Positions 9,620 through 51,633 of a stretch of DNA of 64,000 bases are shown one piece after another (the stretch's first letter is position 1; every line of letters begins with the position of its first letter). Location of the stretch: positions 623 to 64,622 of the forward strand of contig JBFWQT010000001.1 of assembly GCA_050249295.1 (NCBI GenBank). The letters run 5' to 3'. The notes beneath the pieces were generated by a model. The model was not told where the DNA came from, searched no databases, and worked only from the letters and a program-made list of their open reading frames with translations. The DNA is from Planctomycetota bacterium. Its GTDB lineage: Bacteria; Planctomycetota; UBA8742; SKZP01. The translations under genes were made by a program, and so were the position numbers.

Positions 9620-9793
9620 GCGACGAGGTGGGTGATGAGTGCCCGCGGTCAGCCTGACGGTATGGCGCTACGGTACGCGTCGGCCGCTGTGCGCGCCACC
9701 AGTTGGTGAGCGCCGTCGTGCTTGTGCCGGCCGGGCGCAGCGGGCACGATGAGCGAACCACGCCACCACCGGGCCGGCACCGACGGAGACTGC

Positions 9794-11437
9794 ATGCGAG
9801 TTCCGATCCTCATCACCTGCCTGGTGATCGCGACGGTCTCCGCGTCCGGCGCGGCGCAGGATGCCGCCACCGACCAGCCGGCGGCGGACGCGGCGACGAC
9901 ATGGCGCCGGATCTCGGACCAGTGGCTCACCATGCGCGAGCAGGCCGACCACGCGGCCGCCCGCAACGTCTCGCGGCTACTCGTGGAGTGGGTGGTCGAG
10001 AACCACGCGACCCATCCGGCCGAAGCGGCGACCGCCTGTGAACGGCTGGCGATCCTCTCGGACGAGGCGCGGGGCGACGACGAGCTGAAGTCGATGATCG
10101 CCGACCTGGAAACGCTGTGTGTGCTGGACTCTCTCGCGATCGGCCATCGGGTGCTGACGTGTGCGCTGCGGGTGGACCTGCTGGCGCGGCGCGCGGTACT
10201 GGCCCGCGGGCACGAGATGTCGAAGCTCCTGGCAGAAGCTGAAGCTGGCGCGAGGTCACTGGTCACGCGTGACCTGACGTTGCCGCTCGAACGGATCGTG
10301 CAGCTGTACAGCAACCAGACCCTTTCGCTCTGCGTCACGACGGGCGACGAGGCCGCCGGGGCAGCGATGATGGCGGGTGTGCGGCGATCGAGTGGCGCCG
10401 TGCGACGCCGCCTCCTCGAGCGCTACGCCACGTGGATTGTGGCACGCGCCAGGTGGGCCGATGCGCACACCGCGGCCGCCGTGATTGACGGGCTGTACCC
10501 GGCCGACGAGGACGCGGGCGACGCCCCCGCGATGCGACTGCTCGCGCGCCGACTCGACTACTACTATGAGGCCGCCCGGCTCAACGGTGACGGCGCCTCG
10601 CAAGCCGCTGCGCGTGCGTCGCTGCAGGCACTCGGCCCGGCCGGGCGCGATGCGCGGCTGGCGATCGACCACTTCCTGCGCACGCCGTTGGGCCAGCGCG
10701 GCCCGACGTTCTGCCTCGATCCGATCCGCGTCGGAGAGCCGGCGCACGACCTGCTCCACTATCGCGGGAAGAAGGTGCTGCTGGTGTTCATCAACCCGTC
10801 GCGTGCCAGCGACCGCACGGTGTGGCCGCGCATCGTCGAGGCGGCGGAGCGATACTCCGGCCGGCAGTTCGCGCTGATCGCGATTGCCGCCGGCAAGTCG
10901 GCCGGCGTGAGTGCCATGGAGCAGCTGGGCTGTGCCGGGCGCGTTCGCTCGCGCGGCTCCTTCCTGATCGACCAGACCGGCAGCGTGACCCGTGCATGGG
11001 GCTTCGGCGTGGTGCCGGGCACGACCGTCACGATCACTACGGCAGGCGTTGCGCTGCTGGAAGCGGACGGCACCACGGTTGCCAGGTTCGCATTGGACGC
11101 GACCGATCCGGACTTCGATGTCGACCTGCTGCAGCAGACGCTGCGCCTTGCGATCGAGCCACCGCCGGCCACCAGCCTGGTTCGCAGCGGGTCGCAGCCC
11201 CGTTCACCCGGGATGGAGACACTGGTGGCGCTGCTTCCGGCCCTGTACTCGCAAGACGCGATGCCGGCGATCAGCCGATGCCCCACCGTGTACCGCGCCG
11301 CGCTGGTGCTTGGCTCCGATGGCGTGGCGGACCTCATGCGGCGACTGATGACGCTCGCGCGTGGCGCGAAGGATCCGGCCACCCGGAAGCAGGTGATGCA
11401 GTTGTGGGACGCGTTCGGTCGCCTGCAACATCGGTGA
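9794..11437 (+). CDS. Secreted protein with C-terminal thioredoxin-like (redoxin) fold, no CxxC visible
   Basis: ATG 9794 starts signal peptide MRVPILITCLVIATVSASGAAQD; C-terminal GKKVLLVFINPSR...FALIAIAAGK resembles AhpC/TSA-redoxin fold but lacks catalytic Cys. Confidence 0.65.
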   Translation: MRVPILITCLVIATVSASGAAQDAATDQPAADAATTWRRISDQWLTMREQADHAAARNVSRLLVEWVVENHATHPAEAATACERLAILSDEARGDDELKSMIADLETLCVLDSLAIGHRVLTCALRVDLLARRAVLARGHEMSKLLAEAEAGARSLVTRDLTLPLERIVQLYSNQTLSLCVTTGDEAAGAAMMAGVRRSSGAVRRRLLERYATWIVARARWADAHTAAAVIDGLYPADEDAGDAPAMRLLARRLDYYYEAARLNGDGASQAAARASLQALGPAGRDARLAIDHFLRTPLGQRGPTFCLDPIRVGEPAHDLLHYRGKKVLLVFINPSRASDRTVWPRIVEAAERYSGRQFALIAIAAGKSAGVSAMEQLGCAGRVRSRGSFLIDQTGSVTRAWGFGVVPGTTVTITTAGVALLEADGTTVARFALDATDPDFDVDLLQQTLRLAIEPPPATSLVRSGSQPRSPGMETLVALLPALYSQDAMPAISRCPTVYRAALVLGSDGVADLMRRLMTLARGAKDPATRKQVMQLWDAFGRLQHR

Positions 11438-11607: not shown

Positions 11608-13926
11608 CTACTTCAGCGAGTCGAGCGTGGCAGTGACGCGCTTGTCGAGGCTGCGGGCCGTGTCGAGGCAGGCGGCCAGCTCGGCGGCCACGCGCTGCAG
11701 GTTGTGCAGCAGCGCCTCGGGCGAATCCACCATCGGACGCGGCGCATCGGGGTGCTCGCGGTAGAAGTCGCGCACGTCGCGATCAAAGCCCTGGTGCATG
11801 CCGACGCGCAGGGTGTCCCACGCGGCGACGAGCGCGCCGGGCCACTCGCCTTCCATGCGGTCGAGCGTGCTGCGCACGCTGTCGGCCGTGAAGCGGCGGA
11901 ACTCGGGGATGAACGGGTCCATCTCCTCGGCGGCACCCTCGGCCGGGCGGCACGCGGCAAGCAGGCGCGGGCCGAGAATCGCGCGCAACGCGGCATGCAC
12001 GCCGGGGCCCCAGCCGGCCAGCGGGCCGGTCAGCGCACTGCGCACACCATCGGGGAACGCGGCGGCCCATGATTCGATACGGTCGGCCATCAACGACTCG
12101 AAGCGCTCGGCCAGCACCGGCGCGCGGTCTTCGCAGATCGCCGTGGCCAGGTCGTGGCCAAGCATCGGCGCGAGCGCGACGGCCGCCTCGCGACGTTCGC
12201 GACGGCGCTCGGGCGACTCGGGCAGGCCGGCCTGGCGCAGCAACCGCGGCAGCGCGTTACTGATGTGTGTGGCAATGCGGTCGGTCGTCCACGGCTTGAA
12301 CAGCGACTCGCGGGCCGAATGGCCGTTGCCATTCCCGTTGCCGTTGCCATTCGCGAGCTTCGACGACATCTCCTGGCGCGCTTCCTCCAGCATGTGCTGC
12401 TGGCGGCGCTCGATCCAGTGCAGCTCGCGGTCGATCGTCGCGGCGTCCTCGTGGTCGGGGTGCCCGATGAGGTCGAGCATGCCGTCCATCTTGTCGCCGG
12501 TGCGGCCGATCATGCCGGTCAGGCCGTCGAGCACCTCGTCGAGCTGCAGCAGCCGCTTGTGCGTGGAGAAGAAGTTGTAGAGGCCATCGCGCAGCACCTT
12601 CACGCCGCCGTCCTGCGGCGTGAACGTGTGGCGCAGTTTGCGGTGCATCGACTCGTCGCGGATGCGGAAGAACGACGCCGGGTCCTGGCTGTCGAACGAG
12701 CCGCGGATGTTGTCGAGGTTGCCGATCTGCGCGCGGTTCTGCAGGCGGTTGTGCAGCGCCATCCACGCCGAGCAGTAGAACACGCGGTCGCGCGGCAGTT
12801 CGGGGCCGACAAATTCGTCGAGCAGCGAGTGGAACGTGTGGATCGACTTCTCGAGCTCGGAGCCCGGCATGTCGAGCTTGCTGAGCACGAAGAACACCTT
12901 GCGGAAGACGTTCGGCCGCGAGGCGAACGCGCGGAAGATCTCGGTGTCCTTCGCTACCCAGTTGTGGTTCACCGACGAGATGAACAGCACCGCGTCGACC
13001 TCGTCGAGGTAGCTCAACGTGGTGTCATCGAGCAGCGCGTAGGGGCCACCGAGGCCCGGCAGGTCGATGATCTCGGTGTAGTCGGTGAGGAACGGCGAGT
13101 CCTTGAGGATGTGCACCTCTGAGATCAGCCGGTACTTCGGCAGATCGCGCCGCGGGTTGTTGCACTTGAGGAAGAAGTCCTTGGCGGCGTAGTCGGCCGA
13201 GATCAGCGCTTCGCCCGGGTGGTCCACGTAGCGGATCGGATCGGTCAGCCGTTCGGTGGCGTTGATGCGGTTGAGGAACTCGATGAACTCGCGCTTGCCG
13301 GGCTCGTCGTGGAAGAGCACGGTGATGACATCGGTGCTCTCGTTCTTGAACGGGTAGCGGATGCGCGTGACGACCGACGTGGTGGCCTCGTCGAGGCTCG
13401 GCAGGAAGTTGAGCTGATCGAACAGCGCCGAGATGAGGTAGCTCTTGCCGCTGCTCTGGAAGCCGACGATGCCGAACTTGAAGATGCGGTCGTCGTAGTG
13501 ATCGCGCTGCGCGCGCAGGTCGCGGCCGGCCGATTCGAGGTCAGCCGGGGTGAGCAGCTTGCTGTGGTCGGCCGACGTGTCCATGCGGTCGGCGAGCGCC
13601 TCACGCAGCGAGCCGCTGGTCAGCAGGTTGGAGAGCGCCATGCGCCGCGACGGCCCGATCACGCCGTCGAGGCGGTCGAGCAACTGGCCGACCTCGCGGT
13701 CGATCTCCTTCGCTCGCGCCACGGCCTTCGCCGCCCGCTCGGCCGCTTCACGCTCGGCGAGTTCCTGCGCTGAAGGCCCGGCGGGCACGGCGTGACGGAC
13801 CGGCACCGGCACCTCGCGTTGCACGCGCAGATCCAGGTCGAGATCCACGTCCGAGCGATCCGACCGCGGGTTGCGCGGCGGCGTCGGTTCGATGCGACCG
13901 GGGCCGGGTTCTTTGTCGTGGCTCAT
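11608..13926 (-). CDS. Bacterial dynamin-like GTPase (BDLP/DynA/LeoA family)
   Basis: G1 GFQSSGKS (GxxxxGKS), G2 Thr in ATTSVVTRIRYP, G3 DLPG, G4 SKLD; 772 aa with long helical stalk; internal (NG)5 repeat. Confidence 0.85.
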   Translation of the reverse strand: MSHDKEPGPGRIEPTPPRNPRSDRSDVDLDLDLRVQREVPVPVRHAVPAGPSAQELAEREAAERAAKAVARAKEIDREVGQLLDRLDGVIGPSRRMALSNLLTSGSLREALADRMDTSADHSKLLTPADLESAGRDLRAQRDHYDDRIFKFGIVGFQSSGKSYLISALFDQLNFLPSLDEATTSVVTRIRYPFKNESTDVITVLFHDEPGKREFIEFLNRINATERLTDPIRYVDHPGEALISADYAAKDFFLKCNNPRRDLPKYRLISEVHILKDSPFLTDYTEIIDLPGLGGPYALLDDTTLSYLDEVDAVLFISSVNHNWVAKDTEIFRAFASRPNVFRKVFFVLSKLDMPGSELEKSIHTFHSLLDEFVGPELPRDRVFYCSAWMALHNRLQNRAQIGNLDNIRGSFDSQDPASFFRIRDESMHRKLRHTFTPQDGGVKVLRDGLYNFFSTHKRLLQLDEVLDGLTGMIGRTGDKMDGMLDLIGHPDHEDAATIDRELHWIERRQQHMLEEARQEMSSKLANGNGNGNGNGHSARESLFKPWTTDRIATHISNALPRLLRQAGLPESPERRRERREAAVALAPMLGHDLATAICEDRAPVLAERFESLMADRIESWAAAFPDGVRSALTGPLAGWGPGVHAALRAILGPRLLAACRPAEGAAEEMDPFIPEFRRFTADSVRSTLDRMEGEWPGALVAAWDTLRVGMHQGFDRDVRDFYREHPDAPRPMVDSPEALLHNLQRVAAELAACLDTARSLDKRVTATLDSLK

Positions 13927-13936
13927 GTCGGTTCGC

Positions 13937-15541
13937 TCACTTGGTCTTGTCGTCGGTCGGCGTGCCGGGCGGCGTCTGCTTCGTGGTCGAGAACAGCGTG
14001 TCCGCCTGGGTCAACGGCTTCGTCAGCTCGTCGCCGTTGCGGTTCTCGAAGTTGAACAGCAGAACGTCGGTGTCCTTGCCGTTGTTCCAGTCGACGCGCA
14101 CATACACCTTGCGCGACTGCCCGCCCTTGACCTTGATCGCGTCGAGGCTGCCCCACTTGCCGCTGGAGTTGTCTTCCTGCCAGCAGAGGTTCCACGACAT
14201 CTGCCGGACCTGCTCGGCCGAGGTGAACGCGGCGAGGCCTTCGATCGCGTCGCCGGGCAGGTAGTAGACGGCTTTGGTGTTGGGCTTCCACAGGCCGATC
14301 TGGAAGTCGAAGGTCAGGCCGGCACCGCCCATGCCGCTGTGCGGGCGGCCGATCAGCGTGATCTCGGGCTCGTGGAACTGGATGCTGACCGTCGGCCGGC
14401 CGTCGTTGCCGGGCAGGCGGATCGTCTCGCTCATGCGCTTCGTGAGGTTGTTGAGGTAGCCCTCGAAGCCCTTGATGCGGATCAGGCCGATGTTGGTGTT
14501 GGAGTACGTGACCTTGCCGCGCAGCGAGTACGTCGTCTCGAAGTCGCGGCCGTCGGCCTGCACGATGCGCACCGGAATCTCGGCGGTGCCCTTCTTGATG
14601 TAGTGCGACGGGACGACGATCGAGTAGCTGTAGCGGCCGCCCGATGCGGCGCCACCGCTGGCGGCAATCGGATCGAGCCATTCGTTGCGCGTGCTCTTCA
14701 GGGCGAACGACTTGAGCTTGCGCGGGCTGACGTAGTCGAACGTGAAGCTGACTTCGACGTCGTTGCCGTCCGGAATCATCGCGATCAGCTCGGCCTTGCG
14801 CGTCTCGATCTGCTCCTGCGTCATCTCGCTGTTGGCCGTGCTCAGGGGCATCACCTCGCCCTTGTATTCCAGGTCGTCCACCACGGTCTGCATCGCGCGC
14901 TGCACCTGGCTCATCTTCTCGTCGTAGCCGAGCGAGCGCTGCAGGTCGGAGAGCACGACCGGAATCATCAGGTCGGTCGGCTGCGGGTACGACGTGAACT
15001 TCTTCCACTGGTCGATCAGGAACTTGACGGTCTCGTCGAGCTGGTAGCCGGTGACGCGCCACTGGCTGTAGAGGTCGTAGTCGATCAGATCCTCGCCGTC
15101 GCGGTTGCCGACGATCGTCTCGTGCCACGCCTTCTCGGTGAGCTCCATCACGCGCTTGAGCGCGAGCTTCACCATGCCGATCTGTGTCTGGTACCAGGCG
15201 GCGCATTCGGGCTTGAGGTCGCGCAGGCGCACCTCGATGACGTAGCCCGAGGCGCGCGTCGTCGCGTCGTTCTCGGCGAGCGAACTGGCGAGCGTGAAGT
15301 CGGTGATCTTCGCGGCGTGGCCGACGCAGCTGATGCCGCCGTCGTCGAGGCGCTCGACGCCGCCGGCCGCGTGCTTCGCCTGCAGGTCGCGGAAGATCGC
15401 CTTGTTCGGCTTGTACGACGGATCGTTGTCGTCACCGTCGCCGCCGTTGCCGGTAGACTCGCAGCCGACCGCGAGCATGGCCGCGATCATCGCGAGTGCC
15501 GCGAGAGTCAGGAGTGTGCGAGGGGAGCGGGTTGCGAACAT
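13937..15541 (-). CDS. Lipoprotein of unknown function (operon partner of dynamin-like GTPase)
   Basis: ATG at complement 15539-15541 gives MFATRSPRTLLTLAALAMIAAMLAVGC (lipobox); Arg-rich upstream extension of ORF track entry 13937..16333 is non-coding-like; 10 bp from dynamin start. Confidence 0.75.
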   Translation of the reverse strand: MFATRSPRTLLTLAALAMIAAMLAVGCESTGNGGDGDDNDPSYKPNKAIFRDLQAKHAAGGVERLDDGGISCVGHAAKITDFTLASSLAENDATTRASGYVIEVRLRDLKPECAAWYQTQIGMVKLALKRVMELTEKAWHETIVGNRDGEDLIDYDLYSQWRVTGYQLDETVKFLIDQWKKFTSYPQPTDLMIPVVLSDLQRSLGYDEKMSQVQRAMQTVVDDLEYKGEVMPLSTANSEMTQEQIETRKAELIAMIPDGNDVEVSFTFDYVSPRKLKSFALKSTRNEWLDPIAASGGAASGGRYSYSIVVPSHYIKKGTAEIPVRIVQADGRDFETTYSLRGKVTYSNTNIGLIRIKGFEGYLNNLTKRMSETIRLPGNDGRPTVSIQFHEPEITLIGRPHSGMGGAGLTFDFQIGLWKPNTKAVYYLPGDAIEGLAAFTSAEQVRQMSWNLCWQEDNSSGKWGSLDAIKVKGGQSRKVYVRVDWNNGKDTDVLLFNFENRNGDELTKPLTQADTLFSTTKQTPPGTPTDDKTK

Positions 15542-15582
15542 GGTGTCGGCCACTTTCTCGGGGATACAATCAGGTCTGTCGT

Positions 15583-15951
15583 TCAATGTGTGTTCGAAGC
15601 CGGGTTCTGCTTCGACCATTCCCGGTGTCGTCCTTCGGCTTCCAGTCGGCGGATCTCGGAATCGCAGGGTCTGGTTACTGACAAAGGCCGGGTTGGAATC
15701 TCGTAGATGGGCATGAGCCACGGCGCGGGCTCGGACGAGTGATCGCGCGGTGGTTTGATCATCAGTTTCGGCGGCAGACACTTGTCGGCGGGTACCAGAA
15801 CAATGGCTGCAGGCACGGCCTCTGCACGCGCCGGCTCTTTCGCCACGGGCTGATCGGCCCTGGCCGGGATCGCGTGGTTGAGGCCGATCGCAACCGCCAA
15901 CATCGCGATGGATGTCCAGACGACGTCTGACTTGCGGATCGGTGTGCTCAT
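15583..15951 (-). CDS. Small secreted protein, hypothetical
   Basis: MSTPIRKSDVVWTSIAMLAVAIGLNHAIPARA-DQ signal peptide; sits between membrane-protein gene and lipoprotein gene with 29/41 bp gaps. Confidence 0.45.
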   Translation of the reverse strand: MSTPIRKSDVVWTSIAMLAVAIGLNHAIPARADQPVAKEPARAEAVPAAIVLVPADKCLPPKLMIKPPRDHSSEPAPWLMPIYEIPTRPLSVTRPCDSEIRRLEAEGRHREWSKQNPASNTH

Positions 15952-15980
15952 GTGGTGCCTCCTTCCAACTCCACGCGGTC

Positions 15981-18794
15981 TCAACGCGTAACGGTGCGCA
16001 CATCCGAGAGCAACTCGCGGCGCAACGGCCGGTCGGCGTCGTTGCCCCACGTCGGTCGTTCGTTGTCCAGCGAGCGGATCGCGTCACTCTCCTGCGCATC
16101 GCGGTGGAAACTGCTGTTCTCGGGCGCGGGAGGTGGAGCGTTGCCGCCACCATCCGGGCCGCTTTCGCGCGACGGCGCGCTGCCATCGAGCGGACGCTCG
16201 AACTCGCGCTTCGCCAGCTCGTCGGCCTTCGTGTTCCACCACGTCCGGTACGCGTCCGCGTATTGGTCGGTGGGCCCGTTGGCGAAACCATCGGCAAGGG
16301 CATACAGAGCGTAGGGGCACGACGGACTGCCATCCGCCGCTCTGCGCATCAGTGCCAGACGGTCGTCGCCGGTCGCCAGCTCGGCCTTCCAGCGCATCGT
16401 CTCGGTGAACCCCGGAGTCTGCTGGCTGGCCAGCGCCAACGCGCGTGCCGCATCCGCCGTGTTGCCACCGAGCATCGCCAGGTGCCCGATCTTGGTGTTG
16501 GCATACGCCGCCAGTACCGGCTTTTCCGCGGCGATCGACTCGAATGCGGCACTGGCCGGCTGGATACCCGACATCTGATTGTGGAAGAACGCCAGCTGGT
16601 ACCAGGCGAGAGCGCGAACGAGCCGCAGCGGCCACACGTTTTCACCCCTGGCGTAGTCGGTCAGCGCAAGGAGACGACGCATCCGTTCCTCCGGCCGCGT
16701 GTTGTCACTCTGATCTCTGGTGAACGCCGCCTCGAACCATTGCCGCATGCCATCCGCGCCCTTCGCATAGATGCTGCCGTTCGCCTCGCGCATGCGGTTC
16801 AGGCCGGCCTGGCGTTCGTAGTAGTAGAAGTAGCGGATCGCGCCGAACGTGTAGATCGCCTCGTTCGCGTCGAAGTTGATGCCGGCCTCGTAGCTGATCT
16901 GCGGAGCCAGCGTGACCAGCTGGTTGCTGTCGATCAGCGCGGAGAGCTTGGTCATCGCCAGGCCGTCGTACGCATTGCGACCGACCTCGACCGACGTGTA
17001 GTAGCGCAGCAGGTAGAGCTTGTTGCGGTCCGCATCGCTGATCGACTCGCGCGGCGCGAGCATCTGCGGCGTGACTTCGCTGCGGCCGGCGCGGACGTTC
17101 GCCACCGACGAGATGTAGTCGAGCGGGTAGCCCTCGGGCAGCTTCCCGGGCAGCTGTTGCAGCAACAGCGCAGCCGCGGAAAAATCGTCGCGCAACATCT
17201 GGAACCACGCGATGCTGAACGCTTCGAGGGCCCACGTCGCGCTGCCGCGGTCAGGCGTGATGCGCGACACGCTGGTCAGCGACTCGGCAACCGTCTTGCG
17301 GTCGCGGCCGACGGCGGCGATCACCTGCTGCCAGGCCTGCGCGATGGCGAGCAGGTTCTTCAACTCGGGCTGGGCACGGATCGTGTTCAGATCCTCGTCG
17401 CCGAGCAGCGACGTGAGCTTCTTGCCGGCACCGGTGGGCGAATGCTCGACCCAGTACTGGTGCATCGCGGCGCCGAACAGCGAGACGACGCGACCGGCGC
17501 CGGTGGCGAACTCCTCGGCCCCCTCGTAGTTGCCCTGCTGGATCAGCGCCGACTGGATCAGGCGGTCGATCTCGCCCTGCATCTGCTTGTGGCCGTCGAA
17601 CAGCGGGCGCAGTTCCTTCAGGTCCTGCACGCTGGCCGACTGCGAATCCTTGAGCACGCGCTGCAGCAGCCCGGCTTCGGTCTCCATGCGCTGGTCCATC
17701 AGACGGCCGAGGCTCTGCGGCGCGAGGCCCACGGCCGTTGCGTCGGAGATGAGCTTGTCGGCGGTGCCGCGCCAGGCCTCGATCGCGGTGCGACGCGGCA
17801 TGCCCTCGGTCGCCAGATCCTGCGTGGCCTGCGCGCCGGCGGCCTGCAACTGCTGGTCGAAGCGCACCTGCACCTTGCGCGAGATCTCCTCGGTGTAGCG
17901 GTCACCGTCACGGCCGAGGTCCATCAGGTCCTGTTCGGAGAGGCCGTACTCACGCGCTTCGTCGATCAGCGACTTGCGCAGCGAGGCGAAGCTGGTCAGC
18001 GCCGCCGGGTTCTGCTCGACGGCGATCAGCGCGCCATCGGCTTCGGCGCGCAGCTTCGCCTGCAGTGCGCGCTGCGTCGCGCGCACGACGCCCACGCCCG
18101 CCTGGCGGATCGTGTCATCCAGTGCGGGGCGCTTGTCGGCCGGCAGGCGCAGGGCGCGGGCGGTCTCCACGTAGCTCTCGCGAGCGCGCTTCCACGCGTC
18201 GAGCCCGCTGCGCACGTCGCCACCATTGATCGTGCTCTCGGCGTCCATCGCGGCAATGCGCACGCCGGACTGCAGGCTGGCCAGCGCCTCCTTCTGCAGC
18301 AGCGCCATCTGCGCCGAGACGTGGCTCTCCATGTCGTCGGGCACGGCCGCGCCGGTCAGCGTCGCCCAGTCGTTGCGCAGCGTGTCGAGCTGCTGGCCGA
18401 GCCGCGTGATCGCCTCGGAGTCGCCGCTCTTCATCGCCACCTCGGCGTCGCTGACGGCCTTGTCCACGCGGGTGTTCCACGCGGCGGCCATCGCCTTCGT
18501 GATCGTGCCGTCGGAGGCGACGACGTCCTTGCCGTACGTGCGCGCGAAGTCGGAGAGTTTTTCCCAGGTGCCGTCCTTGATCGCGGCGTCACGCGCTTCG
18601 GCGCGCGCGAAGGCCTCGCTGCTCCAGTGGTTCTGCAGCGCCTGCCAGCCGGCGATGCCGCCCCAGACGAGCAGCGCGACCGCGGCGACGATCAGCACTG
18701 GCTTGTAGGTGGTGCGCAGCAGGTGCGCGGCCGAGCGGCCGGGAGCGGTGAACAGGCCGCGATGCAGGCCGAAGAACTTTTTGCCGCGCTGCAT
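15981..18794 (-). CDS. Large membrane-anchored protein, hypothetical (start uncertain; alternatives at 18920 or 19070)
   Basis: MQRGKKFFGLHRGLF...KPVLIVAAVALLVWGGIAGW N-terminal TM anchor followed by about 880 aa helical/acidic domain; ORF-track start (19205) lies inside a REP palindrome so is rejected. Confidence 0.65.
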   Translation of the reverse strand: MQRGKKFFGLHRGLFTAPGRSAAHLLRTTYKPVLIVAAVALLVWGGIAGWQALQNHWSSEAFARAEARDAAIKDGTWEKLSDFARTYGKDVVASDGTITKAMAAAWNTRVDKAVSDAEVAMKSGDSEAITRLGQQLDTLRNDWATLTGAAVPDDMESHVSAQMALLQKEALASLQSGVRIAAMDAESTINGGDVRSGLDAWKRARESYVETARALRLPADKRPALDDTIRQAGVGVVRATQRALQAKLRAEADGALIAVEQNPAALTSFASLRKSLIDEAREYGLSEQDLMDLGRDGDRYTEEISRKVQVRFDQQLQAAGAQATQDLATEGMPRRTAIEAWRGTADKLISDATAVGLAPQSLGRLMDQRMETEAGLLQRVLKDSQSASVQDLKELRPLFDGHKQMQGEIDRLIQSALIQQGNYEGAEEFATGAGRVVSLFGAAMHQYWVEHSPTGAGKKLTSLLGDEDLNTIRAQPELKNLLAIAQAWQQVIAAVGRDRKTVAESLTSVSRITPDRGSATWALEAFSIAWFQMLRDDFSAAALLLQQLPGKLPEGYPLDYISSVANVRAGRSEVTPQMLAPRESISDADRNKLYLLRYYTSVEVGRNAYDGLAMTKLSALIDSNQLVTLAPQISYEAGINFDANEAIYTFGAIRYFYYYERQAGLNRMREANGSIYAKGADGMRQWFEAAFTRDQSDNTRPEERMRRLLALTDYARGENVWPLRLVRALAWYQLAFFHNQMSGIQPASAAFESIAAEKPVLAAYANTKIGHLAMLGGNTADAARALALASQQTPGFTETMRWKAELATGDDRLALMRRAADGSPSCPYALYALADGFANGPTDQYADAYRTWWNTKADELAKREFERPLDGSAPSRESGPDGGGNAPPPAPENSSFHRDAQESDAIRSLDNERPTWGNDADRPLRRELLSDVRTVTR

Positions 18795-19094
18795 GGTGTC
18801 GTCCTGCAGCGGCTGGAAGGTGAGCGGACCGCCGGGCAGCGGGCGACGCGCGGAGACGCGCTCGCCGGCGAGCACCGGAACGACGCTGCGGGTCTGGTGC
18901 GCGGGCGCGGCGTGCGTCATCGGCACGGGAGCAACTGCCGCGTCAGCACTTTCGGCGGCGGCGGCGGCGGCGGCCGGCGGATTCGCACCGCTGGCAGCTT
19001 GCGGCGGGACCGGCACCAGGGCCGTGAGGCTGCGCTTGAAGGGCGACGGGCGAGAAGACGACCGGTTCATCTGCGTGCTCCTGGCGACTCGTCC

Positions 19095-19256
19095 GAGCCG
19101 CGACCGTGAGGGAGCGGGCCGGACCGAACCGACCACTCCCGAATTCATCACTGCGTTCCGAGGTCGAAGAACAAGAGCCGCGACCGTAAGGGAGCGGATG
19201 TGCAACGCGAACCACCCGGCTTACATCCGCTCCCTGACGGTCGCGGCTCTTGTTCT
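19095..19256. repeat. REP-like family A cluster: one direct copy (19095-19120) plus perfect hairpin (arms 19168-19201 / 19223-19256, 21-nt loop)
   Basis: gaacaagagccgcgaccgtaagggagcggatgt ... acatccgctccctgacggtcgcggctcttgttc; located between kinase stop (19269) and next gene. Confidence 0.85.
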
Positions 19257-19268
19257 GCGATCACTCCT

Positions 19269-20912
19269 TCAACTCTGTTCAGCCGGCTCGGGCTTGCGCA
19301 GCCGGGCCGAGCGGGCCTGGTAGTCGGCAACGACGGACGCCGCAGAGTCGGTGCGCGAACCCGGATCGGGCTCGACGCAACCGGCCAGCAACTCCGACAT
19401 CTGCACCGACACCTCGGGGTTCTTGTAGAAGGCCGACGCCAGCGGCTCGAGCGCACCCTGCGGCTCGTACTCCGGCATGTCGGCCGTCATCAAGGTGTAG
19501 AACAGGCGGCCGCCGGCGTAGAGCGCGCTGCGGCGGGCCGACTCCTCGTCGATCTCGTCGAACGACGCGACCGGCATCTGCTGCTCGAGCGCGGCCGCGT
19601 GCTGCTGCACCTCGGGCGCGAGAATCGCGCACATGCCGCTGCTGGCCAGCGTCTCCAGCCACTCGCGGAACGCCGCCTCCTGCCCGGCGCGCGGGCGCAG
19701 GCCGGGGTAGAGGTGGAACATGCGGGCCTCGGCCGGATCAATCCAGAGCAGCGCGAGGTGCGAGACGAACGCGCCGGCGGCGTCCTGCCGCGAGAGGTCG
19801 CTCATCGCCTGCAGGAAGTGGAACTCCAGCACGTTGAGCGGCAGGTTCATGCCACCGAGCGGCTCCAGGCCGGCCAGGTCGGTGCGCAGCACGGTGCGGG
19901 TGCCGCCGTCCACGCGCCAGTCGGGCGGGAGGTAGAAGCCCAGCTGGTCGGTCACGCCGTGGGGCTGCGCGGCCAGCGTCAGGCACTCGGAGAGCACGCG
20001 CACTTCGCCTTGCCGGGCGTCGGTGAATCGCAGGCCGAAGGCGTCCTCGCCGACGAACTGCAGCCGCAGGTCAGCCGCGTAGGCGAGGTCGGCCGCGAGC
20101 GAGCCGAACGACTGGTAGCGGCGCGACGGGTCGGGATGCAGGCAGCGGTGGATGATCGCGGTGAGCAGCGGCAGCTCGGACCAGTTGTCGAGCAGGTCGA
20201 TCTCGCCGGCCAGCACCTTGACGATCAGCTCACGCGGCTCGGCATCCTTGCTGTCGAGCACCGGTGCGGCGAAGAAGAAGTCGTGCAGCACCGCACCAAA
20301 CGAGTAGACGTCGGCGGCCACGGTCTGCGGGACGTCCTCGCCCTGCACGAGCGCGTCGAAGACCTCGGGCGCGATGTACGGGAAGCAGCCGCGCAGCCAG
20401 CCCAGCGAGCGGTCCACGTCCTCGGCCAGGCGGATCTGCAGGCCGAAATCCTTGATCCGCACGCGGCCGTCCACGCGGGTGACGACGACCGACTCGGGGT
20501 TGATCGCGCCGTGGTGCACGCCCATCTGCGCCAGCGTGTGCAGCGCCTCGGCAGCCTTCGCAAAGTGCCCGACGTAGATGCGCGGCGAGTAGTTGACCGC
20601 GTCGCGGATCGCGGGCGCGGCGTCGGCCAGCGTCTCGAACTGGTAGGCGTGGTAGGCGTAGAGCGTGCCCTCGGCCAGGCTCGGCTCGGTGCGCAGGAAG
20701 CTGACCAGCGCGGGGTGGCGCGTCTGGCGCCAGATGTCCTTGTGGTCTTCGCTCAGCACGCTCTGCCACGGCCGGCGGAAGGCCTTGAGAATCACCGCCT
20801 GGCCGGTCGCGCGGTTGCGGGCCAGCACGTCACGGCCGAGCAGCGCGCCCTCGAACTCCGGGGCGAGGCCGCCGGGGCCGGGTGCGTAGAGGTGATACTG
20901 GAAGTCCGCCAT
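19269..20912 (-). CDS. Ser/Thr protein kinase-like protein (catalytic loop HRD replaced by HHG; probable pseudokinase) with C-terminal domain
   Basis: ATG at 20912 preceded by GGAGAG; kinase subdomains VILKAF (Lys), HHGAINPES, IKDFGL, YIAPEVF; about 300 aa C-terminal extension. Confidence 0.75.
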   Translation of the reverse strand: MADFQYHLYAPGPGGLAPEFEGALLGRDVLARNRATGQAVILKAFRRPWQSVLSEDHKDIWRQTRHPALVSFLRTEPSLAEGTLYAYHAYQFETLADAAPAIRDAVNYSPRIYVGHFAKAAEALHTLAQMGVHHGAINPESVVVTRVDGRVRIKDFGLQIRLAEDVDRSLGWLRGCFPYIAPEVFDALVQGEDVPQTVAADVYSFGAVLHDFFFAAPVLDSKDAEPRELIVKVLAGEIDLLDNWSELPLLTAIIHRCLHPDPSRRYQSFGSLAADLAYAADLRLQFVGEDAFGLRFTDARQGEVRVLSECLTLAAQPHGVTDQLGFYLPPDWRVDGGTRTVLRTDLAGLEPLGGMNLPLNVLEFHFLQAMSDLSRQDAAGAFVSHLALLWIDPAEARMFHLYPGLRPRAGQEAAFREWLETLASSGMCAILAPEVQQHAAALEQQMPVASFDEIDEESARRSALYAGGRLFYTLMTADMPEYEPQGALEPLASAFYKNPEVSVQMSELLAGCVEPDPGSRTDSAASVVADYQARSARLRKPEPAEQS

Positions 20913-21390
20913 CGTGCTCTCCGCGACAGCCATTCGACAATTGATGCTAACGGAACCGACGAGCCAGTTGCAAGGCGAGCTGCTGTCTGCAAGTACTTGC
21001 CGGGCCGACAGGTCAGGCAAATCGTCTGGTGAATCCGGCCGGGTTGCGGCTTCGCGCCTGATAATCGTGTCGGACCATCGAGTCGGCGAGTCGGCGAGTC
21101 GGCGGCCGGGATGCACTACTGGTTGAGCAACGGCACGGCCCAACGGTTCATTCCTGATTGAAACGAGCGGAACGGGTGCCGGGTTGTGATCAGCGCAGCG
21201 CGCCAGGGCGGTTCGGCGGGAGAGCGACACATTCGCGACCGACTCCTTTCACGCGGATGCGACAAACTCACGCCGTGGGCATGAACCAATTGACGCGTGC
21301 TCCGTTTGTGCAGTCGGCGGAGGGCCCGGCGCCTGCTGGTGCGGCCGGTCAGTTCCGAGCGCCACACAATCCAACAACGGAGTCGGAGAC

Positions 21391-24300
21391 ATGCGTCTTG
21401 TTGCACCGCGATTTGCCATCGCGGCCGGGCTGGCTATTGCCCTCGGCCTGACCGCACCCGCCTGTGGACGCAAGTCGTCGGCACCGCCACCTGCGCCACA
21501 AGCCGCCGCTGCGATCAGCGACCAGCCGACCAGCGGGCCGATCGAGGTGGCCGGGGACGATCCGTTCTTCGCCGCGGGCGCCGAGGTCGTCGTGATCTCG
21601 CCAGACGGCACCGTGATTCCGCCGGCCGCGACCGCACCCGGTGTGTACCAGCCAGCGGCATCGATGCAGGGCTTCGATGATGATCCGCGGTTCGTCCTCG
21701 ACGCTGGCGACGACCACAACGAGGACCCGACCAACGATCCGTACAACCAGGATCTTCGGCCGAACCCCAGTCCCGACCAGTCCAACGCCGAGTCGCCGTA
21801 CCCGAACCAGGGCTTCAACAGCTCGATCGGACTTGGCAGTAACATCGGCGGAGGCGGCGGCCCGGGCGGCGCGGGTGGCTTTGTCTACCGGCGGGCGCGT
21901 GGGGGTGGCGGCCATCGTGGCGATCAGAATGTGCTGCTCGCGCTGCGCTGGCTGGCCGACCACCAGGCGGCGGACGGCAGCTGGGATCCGATCGACTTCC
22001 CGAAGGCCGGCGCGAACCACGGCCGCACGGCCGGTGAGTACGGCAACCAGGACGGCAGCTTCGACATCGGCCTGGGACACGAACGCGTGGCCACCACCGG
22101 CCTCGCGCTGCTGGCGTTCCTCGGTGCCGGCTACACGCACACCGAAGGCGAGTTCGCCACGCCGGTGAAGCTGGCGCTGCGCTACCTCAAGGCGGTGCAG
22201 GACAACGACGGTGCGTTCGACACGACGAACCGCCACGACCCGCTGTTCGTCTACGGCCACGCGATCGGCACGATGGCGATGGCCGAGGCGTACGGCATGA
22301 CCGGCGCCAACATGCTGAAGGGCCCCGCGCAGAAGGGCGTGGACTTCATCGCCAGCTGCCAGAACCACGACGACGCGCGCGGCTACCTCGGCTGGGGCGA
22401 CGGCATCAAGGTGCTGCCATCCAACACGATCATCACCGGCTGGAATGCGCTCGCGCTGAAGTCGGCCCGCATCGCCGACCTGGATGTGCCTCAGCATTGT
22501 TGGGACGGCGCGATCACGCACCTGTCCGACGTCACCGGCAAAGTCGACGGGGACGCGAAGACCTGGAACACGAAGAAGCATGAGACCAGCGTCGCGCGCG
22601 GCGAGACCACCGACGCGATGAGCATCATGGTGCGCATGTTCGTCAGCCAGGACGCGGCTCTTCGTAACGACCCCACGATGCGCGACCTGGCGAAGCGACT
22701 GACCAGGCCCGACGTGCTGCCGGTGATCGGCGACGCGCCGACGCGCGACCTGCAGTTCCTGCTCTTCACCACGCTCGCGCTGTTCCAGATGGGCGATACC
22801 TGGTGGAAGACGTGGGAGACGCCGATCGGCGACGCGTTGATCAATACGCAGCGCATCAAGCCGGCCGACGTCCATCACCGCGCCTACGGCTCGTGGGACA
22901 GCAGCAGCACCGGCGCCGCGTTTGCCAACGGCCGCGTGTACGCCACGGCGATCAACGCGCTGACGCTCGAGACGTACTACCGCTACGAGAAGGTGGGTAC
23001 GCGCGTGCCGGCGACGCAGGATCGCGACGGCCTGCAGGACTCCGACGAAGGCGACGGCACGTGGGACAACCCGCGCACGCCGCGCGCCCCGCGCTACACC
23101 GACCGCTGGACGAAGGACGCGTACGGCCGCGATTGCTGGAACGGCCGGCCGGTCACGCAGGGCCAGATGTACTGGCGCGGCGGCACCGGCGTGCTCGGCG
23201 TCTTCCCGCTGACGCACACCGCCGTCAACGCCGCGGTCAGCGGCATGATCTCGAGCGTCGAGGTCCGCCAGAGCTACCGCAACGAGCTGACCGAGGCGAT
23301 GGAGGCGATCTACGCCTTTCCGCTGCCCGAGAACGCCGCCGTCAACGAGTTCATCCTGATCATCGGCGAGCGCAAGATCCATGGCTTCATCCGTGAGCGG
23401 CGCGAGGCGCAGCGCATCTACAACCACGCGCGCGCCAACGGCCACACCGCGGCCCTGCTGACGCAGGAGCGGCCCAGCGTGTTCACGCAGCACGTCGCGA
23501 ACATCCCGGCCGGCGGCACGCTCGACGTGTCGATCCGCTACTTCGCGCCGCTGAAGTACGACAACGGCGAGTACACGTTCGTGTTCCCGATGGTCGTCGC
23601 GCCGCGCTACACGCCGAGCAACAACCAGGGCATGGCGCCCACGCCGACCCCGGACCTGGAGCCGAACAGCGGCTACGGCACGAGCTACCCGACCAGCGCC
23701 GTGCCCGACGCCGATCACGTCACGCCGCCGACGATGTGGGCCGGCACTCGCAGTGGTCGCGACATCGCGATCCGGCTGACGATCGATGCGGGCGTGCCGA
23801 TCGAGAAGATCGAGTCGGTCAACCACGCCATCATGGCGCAGCGCGTCAGCCCGAAGGAGATGCGCATCCAGCTGCACCCGGCCGACACGCTGCCGAACAA
23901 GGACTTCGTGCTGCGCTATCGCGTGGCGGGTGCTCTGCCGGCGTACGGCATGGTCGCTCACCACAACGAGAAGCAGGGCGGGTTCTTCGCCCTGATGGTC
24001 CAGCCGCCGCACACGCCCACGCCCGAGCAGATCGTGCCGCGCGAGCTGGTGTTCGTGGTCGACAACAGCGGCTCGATGAATGGCAAGCCGATGGACCAGT
24101 GCCAGGCGCTGATGTGGAAGGCCCTCGGCGGCCTGCGCAAGGGCGACACGTTCAACATCATCACGTTCGCCGGCTCGTCGCAGACGCTGTTCCGCGAATC
24201 GGTCGAGCCGACGGACATGAACGTGCAGCTTGCGTGGAACTACGTCAGCCGGCTCACCGGCGCGGGTGGCACCGAGTTCCTGTCGTCGCTGCGCCAGCTC

Positions 24301-25302
24301 TCCACGATGCCGCGCGACCGTGGCCGGATGCGGGTGGTCACGTTCCTCACCGACGGCCTCGTCAACAACGATGACGCGATCATCGACAGCGTGCAGGCCG
24401 CGCAGCGCTGCGACGCACGCACGCGTTACTTCGCCGTCGGCGTCGGCAGTTCGCCCAACCGCGCGCTGATCGAGCGCATCGCGAGCAATGGCCTCGGCCG
24501 CTCGCTGTTCATCGGCGTCAACGAGTCAGCCAATGCGCCGGCCGAGACGTTCTTCCGCTACATTGACGCGCCGGTGCTGTGGGACTTCTCGCTCGACTGG
24601 GGCAACCTGCAGGTCGAGCAACTCTACCCGAGCCAGCTCGGCGACCTCTGGGCCGGCCAGCCGCTGATCCTCTACGGCCGCTACACCACGGCGGGCATCG
24701 GCGAGCTCACGATCAAGGCGCGTCGCGGCTACGGCGAGATGGTCGAGATCAAGGTGCCCGTCTCGCTGCCCGGCGGCAACGTCGGCAACCCGGCGCTGGC
24801 GTCGGTCTGGGCGCGGCACCGCATCGAGGAACTGAGCGACGCGTGCCTCAGCTGTTCGCAGTATGACCGCTCGACAATGCAGGGAGAGATCAAGCAGATC
24901 GCGCTCGACTTCCATCTGCTCAGCAAGTTCACGGCATTCGTCGCGGTGGACTACTCGGCCCGCGTCAGCAACGGCAACCCGGTGACCGTGCAGCAGCCGC
25001 AGGAGCACGCGGACGGCATGACCAACACCGGCGATGTTGCGCCCGCGGCCGTGATGGCCGGTCCGCGCCTGGCCGCCTGGGGCGTCGAGCTGATGGTCCT
25101 GCCCGACGGCACCGTCTGGATCGACCGAGTGATCCCCGGTTCGGACGCGGCGCTGGCCGGTCTGCGGGCGGGCGTGCGCGTGCTCGGTTGCGACGGTGTG
25201 CGCATCGCATCGGCCGACGACCTGCGCCGCGTCGTGGGTGACGGCGTGATGGTCGAGACGGCCGACGGCGGCACCGTGGACCGCTACTACCTTCCGCGAT
25301 GA
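21391..25302 (+). CDS. Giant lipoprotein: prenyltransferase/squalene-cyclase-like repeats + VIT domain + vWA domain + C-terminal PDZ
   Basis: Lipobox LTAPACG; LALRWLADHQAADGSWD repeats; VIT block AIYAFPLPENAAVNEFILIIGERKIHGFIRER; vWA MIDAS LVFVVDNSGSMNG; PDZ-like VWIDRVIPGSDAALAGLRAGVRVL. Confidence 0.85.
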   Translation: MRLVAPRFAIAAGLAIALGLTAPACGRKSSAPPPAPQAAAAISDQPTSGPIEVAGDDPFFAAGAEVVVISPDGTVIPPAATAPGVYQPAASMQGFDDDPRFVLDAGDDHNEDPTNDPYNQDLRPNPSPDQSNAESPYPNQGFNSSIGLGSNIGGGGGPGGAGGFVYRRARGGGGHRGDQNVLLALRWLADHQAADGSWDPIDFPKAGANHGRTAGEYGNQDGSFDIGLGHERVATTGLALLAFLGAGYTHTEGEFATPVKLALRYLKAVQDNDGAFDTTNRHDPLFVYGHAIGTMAMAEAYGMTGANMLKGPAQKGVDFIASCQNHDDARGYLGWGDGIKVLPSNTIITGWNALALKSARIADLDVPQHCWDGAITHLSDVTGKVDGDAKTWNTKKHETSVARGETTDAMSIMVRMFVSQDAALRNDPTMRDLAKRLTRPDVLPVIGDAPTRDLQFLLFTTLALFQMGDTWWKTWETPIGDALINTQRIKPADVHHRAYGSWDSSSTGAAFANGRVYATAINALTLETYYRYEKVGTRVPATQDRDGLQDSDEGDGTWDNPRTPRAPRYTDRWTKDAYGRDCWNGRPVTQGQMYWRGGTGVLGVFPLTHTAVNAAVSGMISSVEVRQSYRNELTEAMEAIYAFPLPENAAVNEFILIIGERKIHGFIRERREAQRIYNHARANGHTAALLTQERPSVFTQHVANIPAGGTLDVSIRYFAPLKYDNGEYTFVFPMVVAPRYTPSNNQGMAPTPTPDLEPNSGYGTSYPTSAVPDADHVTPPTMWAGTRSGRDIAIRLTIDAGVPIEKIESVNHAIMAQRVSPKEMRIQLHPADTLPNKDFVLRYRVAGALPAYGMVAHHNEKQGGFFALMVQPPHTPTPEQIVPRELVFVVDNSGSMNGKPMDQCQALMWKALGGLRKGDTFNIITFAGSSQTLFRESVEPTDMNVQLAWNYVSRLTGAGGTEFLSSLRQLSTMPRDRGRMRVVTFLTDGLVNNDDAIIDSVQAAQRCDARTRYFAVGVGSSPNRALIERIASNGLGRSLFIGVNESANAPAETFFRYIDAPVLWDFSLDWGNLQVEQLYPSQLGDLWAGQPLILYGRYTTAGIGELTIKARRGYGEMVEIKVPVSLPGGNVGNPALASVWARHRIEELSDACLSCSQYDRSTMQGEIKQIALDFHLLSKFTAFVAVDYSARVSNGNPVTVQQPQEHADGMTNTGDVAPAAVMAGPRLAAWGVELMVLPDGTVWIDRVIPGSDAALAGLRAGVRVLGCDGVRIASADDLRRVVGDGVMVETADGGTVDRYYLPR

Positions 25303-25485
25303 TCGGCGGTGAGTGACTGGTGGTGAGCAGACGCGGCCCGTGGTCGAGCAATCGACTGCGGGCCGTGTCACGTGTGGGCTACACCCGCGGTCCGGCGCGG
25401 CGTCGCCGCTGATCGCTGGTCAAACCTCGCCCGGCACACTACAGTCAACCCAGCGCAACCCGCGGCGGCCCACCCGGCCGGCACG

Positions 25486-26751
25486 ATGCACACCACACGG
25501 CGCACTGCACCATTCCGGCTGCTGCTGATTCCGCTCGAGGGACCGGTCACCTCGATGGCGGACGGCGTCACGGTGGACCTCGTCCTCAGCCCGAGCTTCT
25601 ACATCTCGCGATTCCCGCGAGTGAACGACGCCACCACCAACGCCAGCGTCGGCGAGTTCGAAGGCACGCCGTGCCTGTACCTGAAGGACCGGCTGGTCTC
25701 GCATCCCAACGCCGTGATCGTCCGCGAGAACGGCGGTCTGCGCATCAAGGTCGCGCACGACAATGTGCGCAACCCGCTGTTCATCAACACCGACGTGCTC
25801 AAGCCGGATGCGGGCGTGCGCGATGCCGAGCTGAAGATCGGCGACGTGGTGCAGATCGGCACCAGCCGGTTCCGCGTCGATCGCGCCAGCATCACGCAGT
25901 GGGCCGAGCTGTTCCAGCGGGCGTACCCCGACCTCACGTACGTCACCGTGCTGCAGGAGGGCCTCAGCGGCCGCAGCCGGCACCAGTGCGAGAGCCGCGA
26001 AGGCTACCGCGTGGACGTCGAGTGCCGGACGTTCAAGGGGCCGGTCAGCGCGCACTTCCGCACGTCGGAAGAGACGCTGCAGCGCACGCAGGCGTTGCAG
26101 GCCCACATTGAAGACGACCGCCAGCTGCAGCCGTGGGTGCCGCGCATCTACGACGTGCGCAGCTACGAACTGCCGGACGGCACGCGGCACATCTTCATGG
26201 CGCACGAGGCCTACACCGGCAAGACGCTCGGCCAGCTGCTCGCGGCCGGGCCCCTGACCCGCGAGATCGTGCTGCGCATTGGCGTGAGGCTCTGCGAGGC
26301 TGTGCACCGCCTGCACCAGTTCAATCTGCATCAACAATTGATGCCCGACGCGGTGTGGTTCCGCGAGGGCGAGAACCCGGACGCCGACAAGCTGAAGCTC
26401 GCCGGACTGATGTTCGTGCGCGAGACGCTGTCGCGCGAAGGCACGCCCGATGCCGCGCTGGCCTGGACGCCGCCGGAGTTCCTCGACCATGGCGAGTACA
26501 CCGAGCGTTCGGACATGTACGTCGTTGCGCTGTTGCTCGCCCACGCGCTCTCCGGCATGCCGCCGTACGAAGGCGACAAGGCGCAAGAGGTGGTCAGCAA
26601 GGTGCTCAACGCGCGGCCGGCGCTGCCCGACAGCTGCCCGGCAAAGCTCGCCGCGGTGCTCGACAAGGCGTGGGCCAAGCGGCCGAGCATGCGCTTCCGC
26701 ACGCTGCTCGATCTGAAGATCCAGCTGCAACGACTGCTGGAACACGGCTGA
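25486..26751 (+). CDS. FHA-domain protein fused to degenerate protein-kinase-like (pseudokinase) domain
   Basis: ATG 25486; FHA core GGLRIKVAHDNVRNPLFINTDVL...IGDVVQIGTSRFRV; kinase-like C-term lacks HRD Asp and DFG (HQQLMPDAV, KLAGLMFV) but keeps TPPEF/SDMYVVALLLAHAL. Confidence 0.7.
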   Translation: MHTTRRTAPFRLLLIPLEGPVTSMADGVTVDLVLSPSFYISRFPRVNDATTNASVGEFEGTPCLYLKDRLVSHPNAVIVRENGGLRIKVAHDNVRNPLFINTDVLKPDAGVRDAELKIGDVVQIGTSRFRVDRASITQWAELFQRAYPDLTYVTVLQEGLSGRSRHQCESREGYRVDVECRTFKGPVSAHFRTSEETLQRTQALQAHIEDDRQLQPWVPRIYDVRSYELPDGTRHIFMAHEAYTGKTLGQLLAAGPLTREIVLRIGVRLCEAVHRLHQFNLHQQLMPDAVWFREGENPDADKLKLAGLMFVRETLSREGTPDAALAWTPPEFLDHGEYTERSDMYVVALLLAHALSGMPPYEGDKAQEVVSKVLNARPALPDSCPAKLAAVLDKAWAKRPSMRFRTLLDLKIQLQRLLEHG

Positions 26752-31307: not shown

Positions 31308-31441
31308 GGCGGCAGCGAGAAAGAATGCCGGGCAGTTCGCTGTTCAGGGTAATGGGTGAAGCGTACACCGGCACGCACCGAAGCGGAATCGGCGGCCGCA
31401 CAGGCGGCGTCGCTGGCGGCGTACAGCGGGCGGAGCTCCTG

Positions 31442-35539: not shown

Positions 35540-35715
35540 CGGTGGGCCGGCTCCGCTCCGCTGGTGCGACAAGGCGACCCATTATGCCGCGCGCCGGTCG
35601 GTGCGAACAGGCTCGCGCGAGTCGGCGGCCGCTCGCCAGGCGCACACTCCCGATCCGGGCGCGTCGCACGTATACTCATGAGCCCCGCGCAACGTCTTAC
35701 CGCTCGTGCAACCGC

Positions 35716-44238: not shown

Positions 44239-44266
44239 GATTTCCCCGCTCCCTGTCGGTCGCGGC
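44239..44266 (-). repeat. REP-like family A copy (minus orientation)
   Basis: ccccgctccctgtcggtcgcggctctt in convergent gap between ftsK and recO. Confidence 0.7.
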
Positions 44267-44268
44267 TC

Positions 44269-51600: not shown

Positions 51601-51633
51601 GCAGGAGCCGCGACCGCAAGGGAGCGGGCCCAT
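51601..51633 (+). repeat. REP-like family A copy
   Basis: ggcaggagccgcgaccgcaagggagcgggccc 10 bp after HK stop. Confidence 0.7.

Follow-up and report, generated by a model that had tools for sequence, protein, structure and literature searches.

A single divergent dynamin-like GTPase encoded with an orphan lipoprotein and a large membrane protein suggests an undescribed envelope-linked module in uncultured Planctomycetota

Most characterised bacterial dynamins act as pairs of paralogues, and how they are positioned on the membrane is poorly understood. The bacterial dynamins known at the time of an earlier report were mostly encoded in tandem, with YjdA a notable exception; in the same report LeoA alone did not bind lipid, and LeoB was its membrane-anchored partner (PMC4159319). 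IniBAC in mycobacteria and DynA/DynB in Streptomyces and Bacillus are operon-encoded dynamin-like GTPases connected with envelope stress, vesicle release or septation (PMC6715688, PMC10240201). Here we describe a locus in the metagenome-assembled genome (MAG) of a Planctomycetota bacterium, found in a 64-kb stretch of contig JBFWQT010000001.1 with ~69% GC that is called the window below. A dynamin-like GTPase, a lipoprotein, a small open reading frame (ORF) and a large membrane protein are encoded there side by side on the minus strand (Table 1). The known part is the dynamin engine; new is a single dynamin with non-dynamin, envelope-exposed orphan partners. Our literature searches found no planctomycete dynamin-lipoprotein module. 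The locus suggests an undescribed machine linking the cytoplasm to the cell envelope in rare uncultured Planctomycetota, members of a phylum with unusual membrane architecture and long-standing questions on its remodelling machinery.

The module shares part of its design with several described systems. LeoABC (Eleos) of enterotoxigenic Escherichia coli is also a bacterial dynamin operon, with membrane attachment that probably relies on a partner, as we infer for the mechanism here. The Leo partners are themselves dynamin-like, whereas the partners here are a lipoprotein and a bitopic helical protein without a GTPase domain. Like IniBAC and DynA/DynB, the window has a dynamin-like GTPase in a putative operon, but their dynamins come as two paralogues or as a fused pair, and none of them has been described with a conserved lipoprotein partner. 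The tandem or fused pair typical of bacterial dynamins was found neither in the 64-kb window nor in the 20-kb contig of the related locus L001. E. coli YjdA (CrfC) is likewise a bacterial dynamin that is not in tandem with another; no similarity between it and the window GTPase was detected, and its partner set presumably differs as well. Unlike BDLP1 of Nostoc punctiforme, the window GTPase is not in tandem with a second dynamin gene. It also differs from BDLP1 and mitofusin/Fzo1 in having no sequence match to solved dynamins (E<=1), and from the BDLP/mitofusin proteins in having no clear hydrophobic paddle or transmembrane hairpin. The combination of DLPG (G3) and TKLD (G4) is typical of eukaryotic dynamin/Mx, and the DLPG and SKLD of the window GTPase resemble these motifs, unlike those of the BDLP/mitofusin class. 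Among eukaryotic systems, Drp1 with Mff, Fis1 and MiD in mitochondrial fission provides a parallel to the recruitment proposed below, that of a soluble dynamin by a short cytoplasmic segment of a membrane protein with a tail or single-pass anchor, and Drp1 is among the top Foldseek matches of the window GTPase model. The parallel is one of analogy, as the Drp1 adaptors have no homology to the large protein and the partners here extend across a bacterial envelope.

The window GTPase is a member of the dynamin family. Its match to Pfam Dynamin_N (PF00350) spans positions 3-167 of the 168 in the profile and scores 54.1 bits, where the gathering cutoff is 27; the homologues P0003 (51.1 bits) and P0004 (55.8 bits) pass this cutoff as well. 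The motifs GFQSSGKS, VVTR, DLPG and SKLD follow in order and are unchanged throughout an alignment of four GTPase homologues. An earlier note, written by a model from the DNA letters alone, had called the gene a dynamin-like GTPase with GFQSSGKS, DLPG and SKLD; all three motifs lie where it placed them, and the Dynamin_N search it proposed was positive. The same note held that a single dynamin-like protein is encoded here, which is true locally: a phmmer search with the GTPase against all ORFs of the window returned only the GTPase itself, and the 20-kb L001 contig contains one Dynamin_N gene. The note named motifs of another TRAFAC class (such as EngA or Era) with no dynamin stalk as a finding that would refute it. 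On that reading, a GTPase of the Era or EngA type or similar, and no dynamin, would carry an unrelated helical tail. Weak matches to MMR_HSR1, Era and Der, a poorly modelled GTPase domain and the lack of a sequence match to solved dynamins could all be read that way. Era and Der (EngA) reach only ~14 bits against cutoffs of 237-307, however, and the small-GTPase models ~14-20 bits, far under theirs, whereas three family members match Dynamin_N over its whole length, with scores double the gathering threshold. The protein is 772 amino acids (aa) long with long helices flanking the GTPase domain on both sides, and dynamin-family structures rank at the top of two independent structure searches, led by mitofusin and BDLP. 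We consider a GTPase of another class very improbable and effectively excluded.

A profile search of the PDB with the GTPase found no solved dynamin even at E<=1, so the family is very divergent. N-terminal helices (aa 53-145) are followed by the GTPase domain (~150-400) and by C-terminal helical bundles (442-771). An AlphaFold model built on a four-sequence alignment shows these long helices before (aa 53-145) and after (aa 442-771) the G domain but is poor overall, with a predicted local distance difference test score (pLDDT) of 56.7; most of the G domain is below 50, and the last 220 residues reach 80-92. Searched against the PDB with Foldseek, this low-confidence model has BDLP as its best match (E 5.6e-5), then SynDLP, Drp1, MxB, MxA and IniA, with Campylobacter DLP and LeoA further down the ranking. 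The GTPase is a divergent member of the dynamin superfamily and, by its predicted fold, probably belongs to the BDLP/mitofusin architectural class. Hydropathy analysis found no transmembrane segment in the GTPase; no 19-residue window of the window GTPase exceeds 1.2 on the Kyte-Doolittle scale, while two moderately hydrophobic helices are conserved in position among the homologues. These helices (aa ~580-600 and ~640-660) are the most hydrophobic in the family and precede the invariant C-terminal motif AEEMDPF in the alignment. Judged by their position, they may make a paddle-like contact with the membrane or with a partner. Assembly-stimulated GTP hydrolysis and membrane binding or remodelling are putative activities of the GTPase, as traits of its family. 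Within its gene, the hexanucleotide GCCGTT is repeated 4.5 times in frame and codes for an (Asn-Gly)n linker; the linker varies in length among homologues, being longer in P0002 and absent in P0003.

We compared the window with eight related loci (L001-L008). Four relatives of the GTPase were found in 5.8 billion proteins, at 53-81% identity, plus one in a species-genome collection. All loci come from a few uncultured Planctomycetota MAG lineages, and a scan of genome contigs gave a single locus. L006 and L008 are too short to inform on gene order, and L007 is the window's own organism (99.98% nucleotide identity). In L001/L002 (JGI), the gene directly upstream of the GTPase gene encodes a lipoprotein homologue of 526 aa (33% identity, E 3e-89), with PrkA upstream of the lipoprotein. 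A lipoprotein homologue (38% identity) is also directly upstream of the GTPase gene in L003, where the contig ends inside the lipoprotein gene. In L004, from MAG SKZP01, the lipoprotein stands between a large-protein homologue upstream (28% over 982 aa, E 5e-92) and the GTPase downstream, and L005 has a large-protein homologue (24% over 1068 aa, E 9e-37) followed by the lipoprotein, the contig ending 41 nt later. The lipoprotein and GTPase genes are thus adjacent at all four visible junctions (window, L001/L002, L003 and L004), with lipoproteins 29-38% identical, and therefore form the conserved core. Four lineages show the region upstream of the lipoprotein, and in three of them (window, L004 and L005) it holds the large protein. 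Lipoprotein and GTPase are co-inherited in every visible case, and the large protein usually is too. None of the other window neighbours (the pseudokinase, a ComM-like ATPase, a 571-aa protein and a VIT-VWA protein) has a homologue in the related loci; the core genes stay together while other neighbours change, which argues for a selected linkage. The earlier note had treated the locus as a four-gene unit and named partners not conserved with the dynamin as another finding that would count against it. The lipoprotein and the large protein are conserved with the GTPase in related genomes, so that neither of the note's two refuting findings was made; the small protein is confined to the window's organism, and the large protein is not beside the pair in L001/L002. 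The GTPase and lipoprotein families share a matching, very narrow distribution. Scans of metagenome contigs with the GTPase alignment and with the lipoprotein alignment returned no relatives, and neither did a scan of viral contigs or a tblastn search of plasmids.

The 534-aa protein is an exported bacterial lipoprotein, judging from its N-terminus MFATRSPRTLLTLAALAMIAAMLAVGC, a signal peptide (Kyte-Doolittle 2.26) that ends in the lipobox LAVGC. The lipobox Cys is aligned in all five full-length lipoprotein homologues, in keeping with the earlier note, which had proposed a lipoprotein of this length. It is an orphan family, with four clusters among 1.84 billion representatives. A PDB profile search gave no significant match, and a word-indexed homologue search returned only the query. 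In its structure model, helices at the N-terminal end give way to alpha/beta and beta-sandwich parts; no fold could be assigned at a pLDDT of ~57. A match to the WD40/NACHT protein P0010 (E 5e-10, from 8 weak repeats) was judged a chance match amplified by repeats. Among the Pfam results, DUF3472 was rejected as below threshold, with 15.6 bits against a cutoff of 24.8.

The large protein consists of a ~120-aa N-terminal tail, a single transmembrane helix and a mostly helical C-terminal region of ~890 aa. The 25 residues before the helix contain four K/R and no D/E, and the 25 after it three K/R and four D/E. This positive charge on the N-terminal side places the N-terminus inside and the C-terminus outside, and indicates a bitopic protein with a predicted cytoplasmic tail and a predicted periplasmic domain of ~890 aa. 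Just before the helix is a motif (aa 85-110) that is unchanged in all three large proteins (window, L004 and L005); a regular-expression search of all retrieved loci found it in these three genes and nowhere else. Its invariant residues are F85, P87, L88, D90, K98, F99, H103, L106, T108 and P110 in the window protein. We propose it as a candidate docking site for the GTPase. The earlier note gave the protein ~930 aa, which did not hold up: a product of 937 aa would begin at a Met downstream of the invariant motif, so the true start must be further upstream, consistent with the 1029-aa reading annotated by NCBI. A start at 19070 is also consistent with the REP (repetitive extragenic palindromic) units that begin at 19095. 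The protein has no Pfam match and no significant PDB profile match, and a word-indexed homologue search returned only the query. Tetratricopeptide repeats (TPRs) were matched only below threshold, near the C-terminus: in the L005 homologue TPR_16 scored 22.6 bits (cutoff 32.7), and PDB TPR structures matched at E 0.08-1. The window protein itself had no TPR hit in Pfam. Tests for hidden homology to the large protein were negative for two L001 genes, which encode proteins of 842 aa and 553 aa. Part of the predicted cytoplasmic tail is not conserved in the homologues, and there a (CGG)9 repeat codes for a stretch of poly-Ala.

Closely packed minus-strand genes had been noted at 11608-19070, and the ORF coordinates agree: from the large protein through the small ORF and the lipoprotein to the GTPase the gaps are 29, 41 and 10 bp. 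The G+C content at third codon positions (GC3) is 0.89 for the large protein, 0.95 for the lipoprotein and 0.92 for the GTPase, values typical of real genes in a 69% GC genome, so these three larger ORFs look genuine; the small ORF has 0.72. All four genes are annotated by NCBI, the GTPase as a dynamin family protein and the others as hypothetical proteins (AB7K09_00050, _00055 and _00060). Scans for promoters and terminators, otherwise uninformative, found no terminator-like site in the intergenic gaps. With a common strand, gaps of 10-41 bp, a REP hairpin upstream and a convergent gene downstream, the layout suggests an operon, and the hairpin is likely its upstream boundary.

Table 1. Coordinates of the module, its motifs and its surroundings in the 64-kb window
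Feature	Position	Strand	Residues	Basis or remark
Large bitopic membrane protein (predicted topology)	15981-19070	minus	1029 aa	ORF call and NCBI annotation
Predicted cytoplasmic motif F-x-P-L-x-D...[KR]-F...H-x-x-L-x-T-x-P	18741-18818	minus	aa 85-110	Three-protein alignment
Transmembrane helix of large protein	18645-18701	minus	aa 124-142	Kyte-Doolittle 2.09 over 19 residues
(CGG)9 repeat	18953-18980			Large-protein gene
Small ORF	15583-15951	minus	122 aa	ORF call; NCBI AB7K09_00055
Lipoprotein gene	13937-15541	minus	534 aa	ORF call
Lipobox LAVGC	15461-15475	minus	Cys27	Motif and hydropathy reading
Dynamin-like GTPase gene	11608-13926	minus	772 aa	ORF call
Dynamin_N GTPase domain match	12877-13470	minus	aa 153-350	Pfam
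G1 GFQSSGKS	13441-13464	minus	aa 155-162	Motif reading
Switch I SVVTRIRY	13354-13377	minus	VVTR aa 185-188	Motif reading
G3 DLPG	13054-13065	minus	aa 288-291	Motif reading
G4 SKLD	12871-12882	minus	aa 349-352	Motif reading
Invariant C-terminal motif AEEMDPF	11911-11931	minus	aa 666-672	Homologue alignment
(GCCGTT) x 4.5 repeat	12322-12351			GTPase gene
Downstream neighbour gene	9722-11437	plus		Convergent with GTPase gene
REP-like cluster, three units	19095-19260			Between pseudokinase stop (19269) and large-protein start (19070)
REP hairpin arms	19164-19201 and 19223-19260			Two of the three units
REP-like units	19095-19117, 19175-19197, 19227-19249, 44246-44268, 51605-51627, 61166-61188, 61419-61441, 61525-61547			Eight copies
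Pseudokinase	19269-20933	minus		Pkinase 54 bits
VIT-VWA protein	21391-25302			Large gene
Second Pkinase-domain protein	25327-26751	plus		Loop LHQQLMPD
DUF4132 protein	28407-31343	minus		
VWA and GATase1-like protein	31442-35581	minus	1379 aa	

The reading we favour, to which we give about an even chance, is a trans-envelope dynamin module recruited by an adaptor, with GTPase, lipoprotein and large protein acting together. The invariant N-terminal motif of the large protein would draw the soluble GTPase to the inner membrane on its cytoplasmic side, a step comparable to the recruitment of Drp1 by membrane adaptors. The periplasmic helical domain of the large protein would contact the lipoprotein, itself anchored in a periplasm-facing membrane leaflet. 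GTP-driven dynamin assembly could then bend, tether, fuse or sever the cytoplasmic membrane at sites defined by the envelope, and a likely use would be the upkeep or repair of the strongly invaginated planctomycete cytoplasmic membrane. The topology of the three proteins (a conserved lipobox Cys, a single transmembrane helix with positive charge on its N-terminal side, and a GTPase without transmembrane segment) is consistent with this reading, as are the operon layout, the selected linkage and the matching narrow distribution of the two core families. With a single divergent dynamin tied genetically to two orphan envelope proteins, one of them carrying a conserved predicted cytoplasmic peptide beside its anchor, the module is a concrete candidate for adaptor-mediated recruitment of a bacterial dynamin. 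Several observations weigh against it. A cytoplasmic GTPase cannot touch an exported lipoprotein directly, and the moderately hydrophobic helices of the GTPase could themselves bind the membrane without an adaptor. L001/L002 keep the lipoprotein-GTPase pair with no large protein nearby and with PrkA in its place, and the aa 85-110 motif is absent from the 20-kb L001 contig; in these loci the adaptor is either dispensable or encoded elsewhere. Both structure models, of the GTPase and of the lipoprotein, are of low confidence (pLDDT 57), and the sample amounts to about six independent lineages, all metagenomic. The value of the module is limited accordingly, its family being known from a handful of uncultured lineages and through low-confidence models. 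It is quite improbable, in our estimate, that the periplasmic partners (lipoprotein and large protein) go as far as to choose where the cytoplasmic dynamin severs or fuses the planctomycete inner membrane. If they did, adaptor-directed dynamin scission would have a bacterial counterpart, one that could account for how Planctomycetota form or turn over membrane invaginations, or for vesicle-like uptake in them.

Membrane remodelling and envelope defence, the labels under which the locus was first filed, are both interpretations of its gene content. If the locus served membrane integrity or protection against phage, envelope stress or phage attack would prompt the dynamin to seal damaged membrane or tether it, much as with Bacillus DynA or Eleos (LeoABC), and its partners would be sensors on the envelope side. 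This overlaps the adaptor-recruited module in mechanism and differs from it only in the trigger. PADLOC gives the GTPase a weak LeoA match (25.7 bits, E 1.4e-6, aa 285-367), but the match covers just the generic G3-G4 region; there is no LeoBC and no second dynamin, and no partner matches any PADLOC model, which leaves the locus outside Eleos/LeoABC as PADLOC delimits it. Identities of 24-38% point to fast evolution of the envelope-exposed partners, the GTPase being 53-81% identical, the flanking genes differ between lineages, and kinase-like genes are near (a pseudokinase in the window, PrkA in L001), as might be expected of a defence system. The surroundings, on the other hand, are ordinary chromosomal genes (a peptidase, a peptidyl-prolyl isomerase, a ComM-like ATPase and VWA proteins) with no defence island, and no relatives occur in viral contigs or plasmids. 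PADLOC, viral contigs and plasmids thus yielded no evidence specific to defence, and we hold this trigger to be unlikely. We assign a similarly low probability to adjacency without joint function, in which the partners would have an envelope role of their own, the dynamin would act independently, and the gene order would be inherited within a narrow clade. Such inheritance would fit the origin of every locus in a single small group of Planctomycetota MAGs and the lack of a large protein beside the pair in L001/L002. It is disfavoured by the synteny pattern: the surrounding gene order is otherwise fully rearranged, yet these genes have remained side by side at protein identities of 27-38%. The tight gaps, the common strand and the equally narrow distribution of two orphan families also speak against it.

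The small ORF between the large-protein and lipoprotein genes is preceded by a strong Shine-Dalgarno sequence, GGAAGGAGG. It has a signal-peptide-like N-terminus with a hydrophobic stretch (aa 10-28) and the cleavage motif ARA|DQ, as expected from the earlier description of a signal-peptide protein of ~120 aa, but it is no conserved member of the module. Neither L004, with a 121-bp gap at this place, nor L005, with a 280-bp gap, has a counterpart. Its GC3 of 0.72 and GC of ~62% are well under those of its neighbours, and its own frame is still the best of the three. L007, being the window's organism, offers no independent test of coding status. The small ORF is lineage-specific and found only in the window's organism, with its coding status uncertain; perhaps it was acquired recently, evolves fast or is no gene. 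If expressed, it is predicted to be an optional, lineage-specific addition to the module.

Upstream of the large-protein gene lies a cluster of REP-like units. The unit, GAGCCGCGACCG-N-AGGGAGCGG, occurs in 8 copies in the window where 0 are expected, always just past gene ends. Two of the three clustered units form the hairpin reported earlier, which is real, with 38-nt arms that are 95% complementary, though not conserved with the module. A REP-like unit is also present at L008 60-85, upstream of the dynamin gene of the relative whose protein is 81% identical. The "degenerate Ser/Thr kinase" said to lie immediately upstream is indeed degenerate. By eye, its catalytic loop reads VHHGAINPES where HRDLKPEN is expected, with VILK, DFG and APE kept, so that the HRDxKxxN with Asp of an active Hanks-type Ser/Thr kinase is lost. 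It is not conserved with the module, and no related locus has a homologue. A second protein with a Pkinase domain, encoded on the plus strand, also lacks the HRD catalytic loop; judged by these loops, both are probably pseudokinases, and their genes flank the large VIT-VWA protein gene.

Other genes near the module differ from locus to locus. The PrkA-type serine protein kinase gene (AAA_PrkA and PrkA) directly upstream of the lipoprotein-dynamin pair is at 4339-6387 in L001 and 762-1928 in L002, with a VWA gene near it on the opposite strand. Upstream of the large-protein homologue, L005 encodes at 332-1870 a 512-aa protein that has no counterpart in the window; it contains several hydrophobic segments and, at its N-terminus, a zinc-ribbon-like CxxC pair. 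Large proteins of the DUF4132 and VWA/GATase1-like types are typical of planctomycetes, and one of each is encoded by consecutive minus-strand genes further along the window, unrelated to the module.

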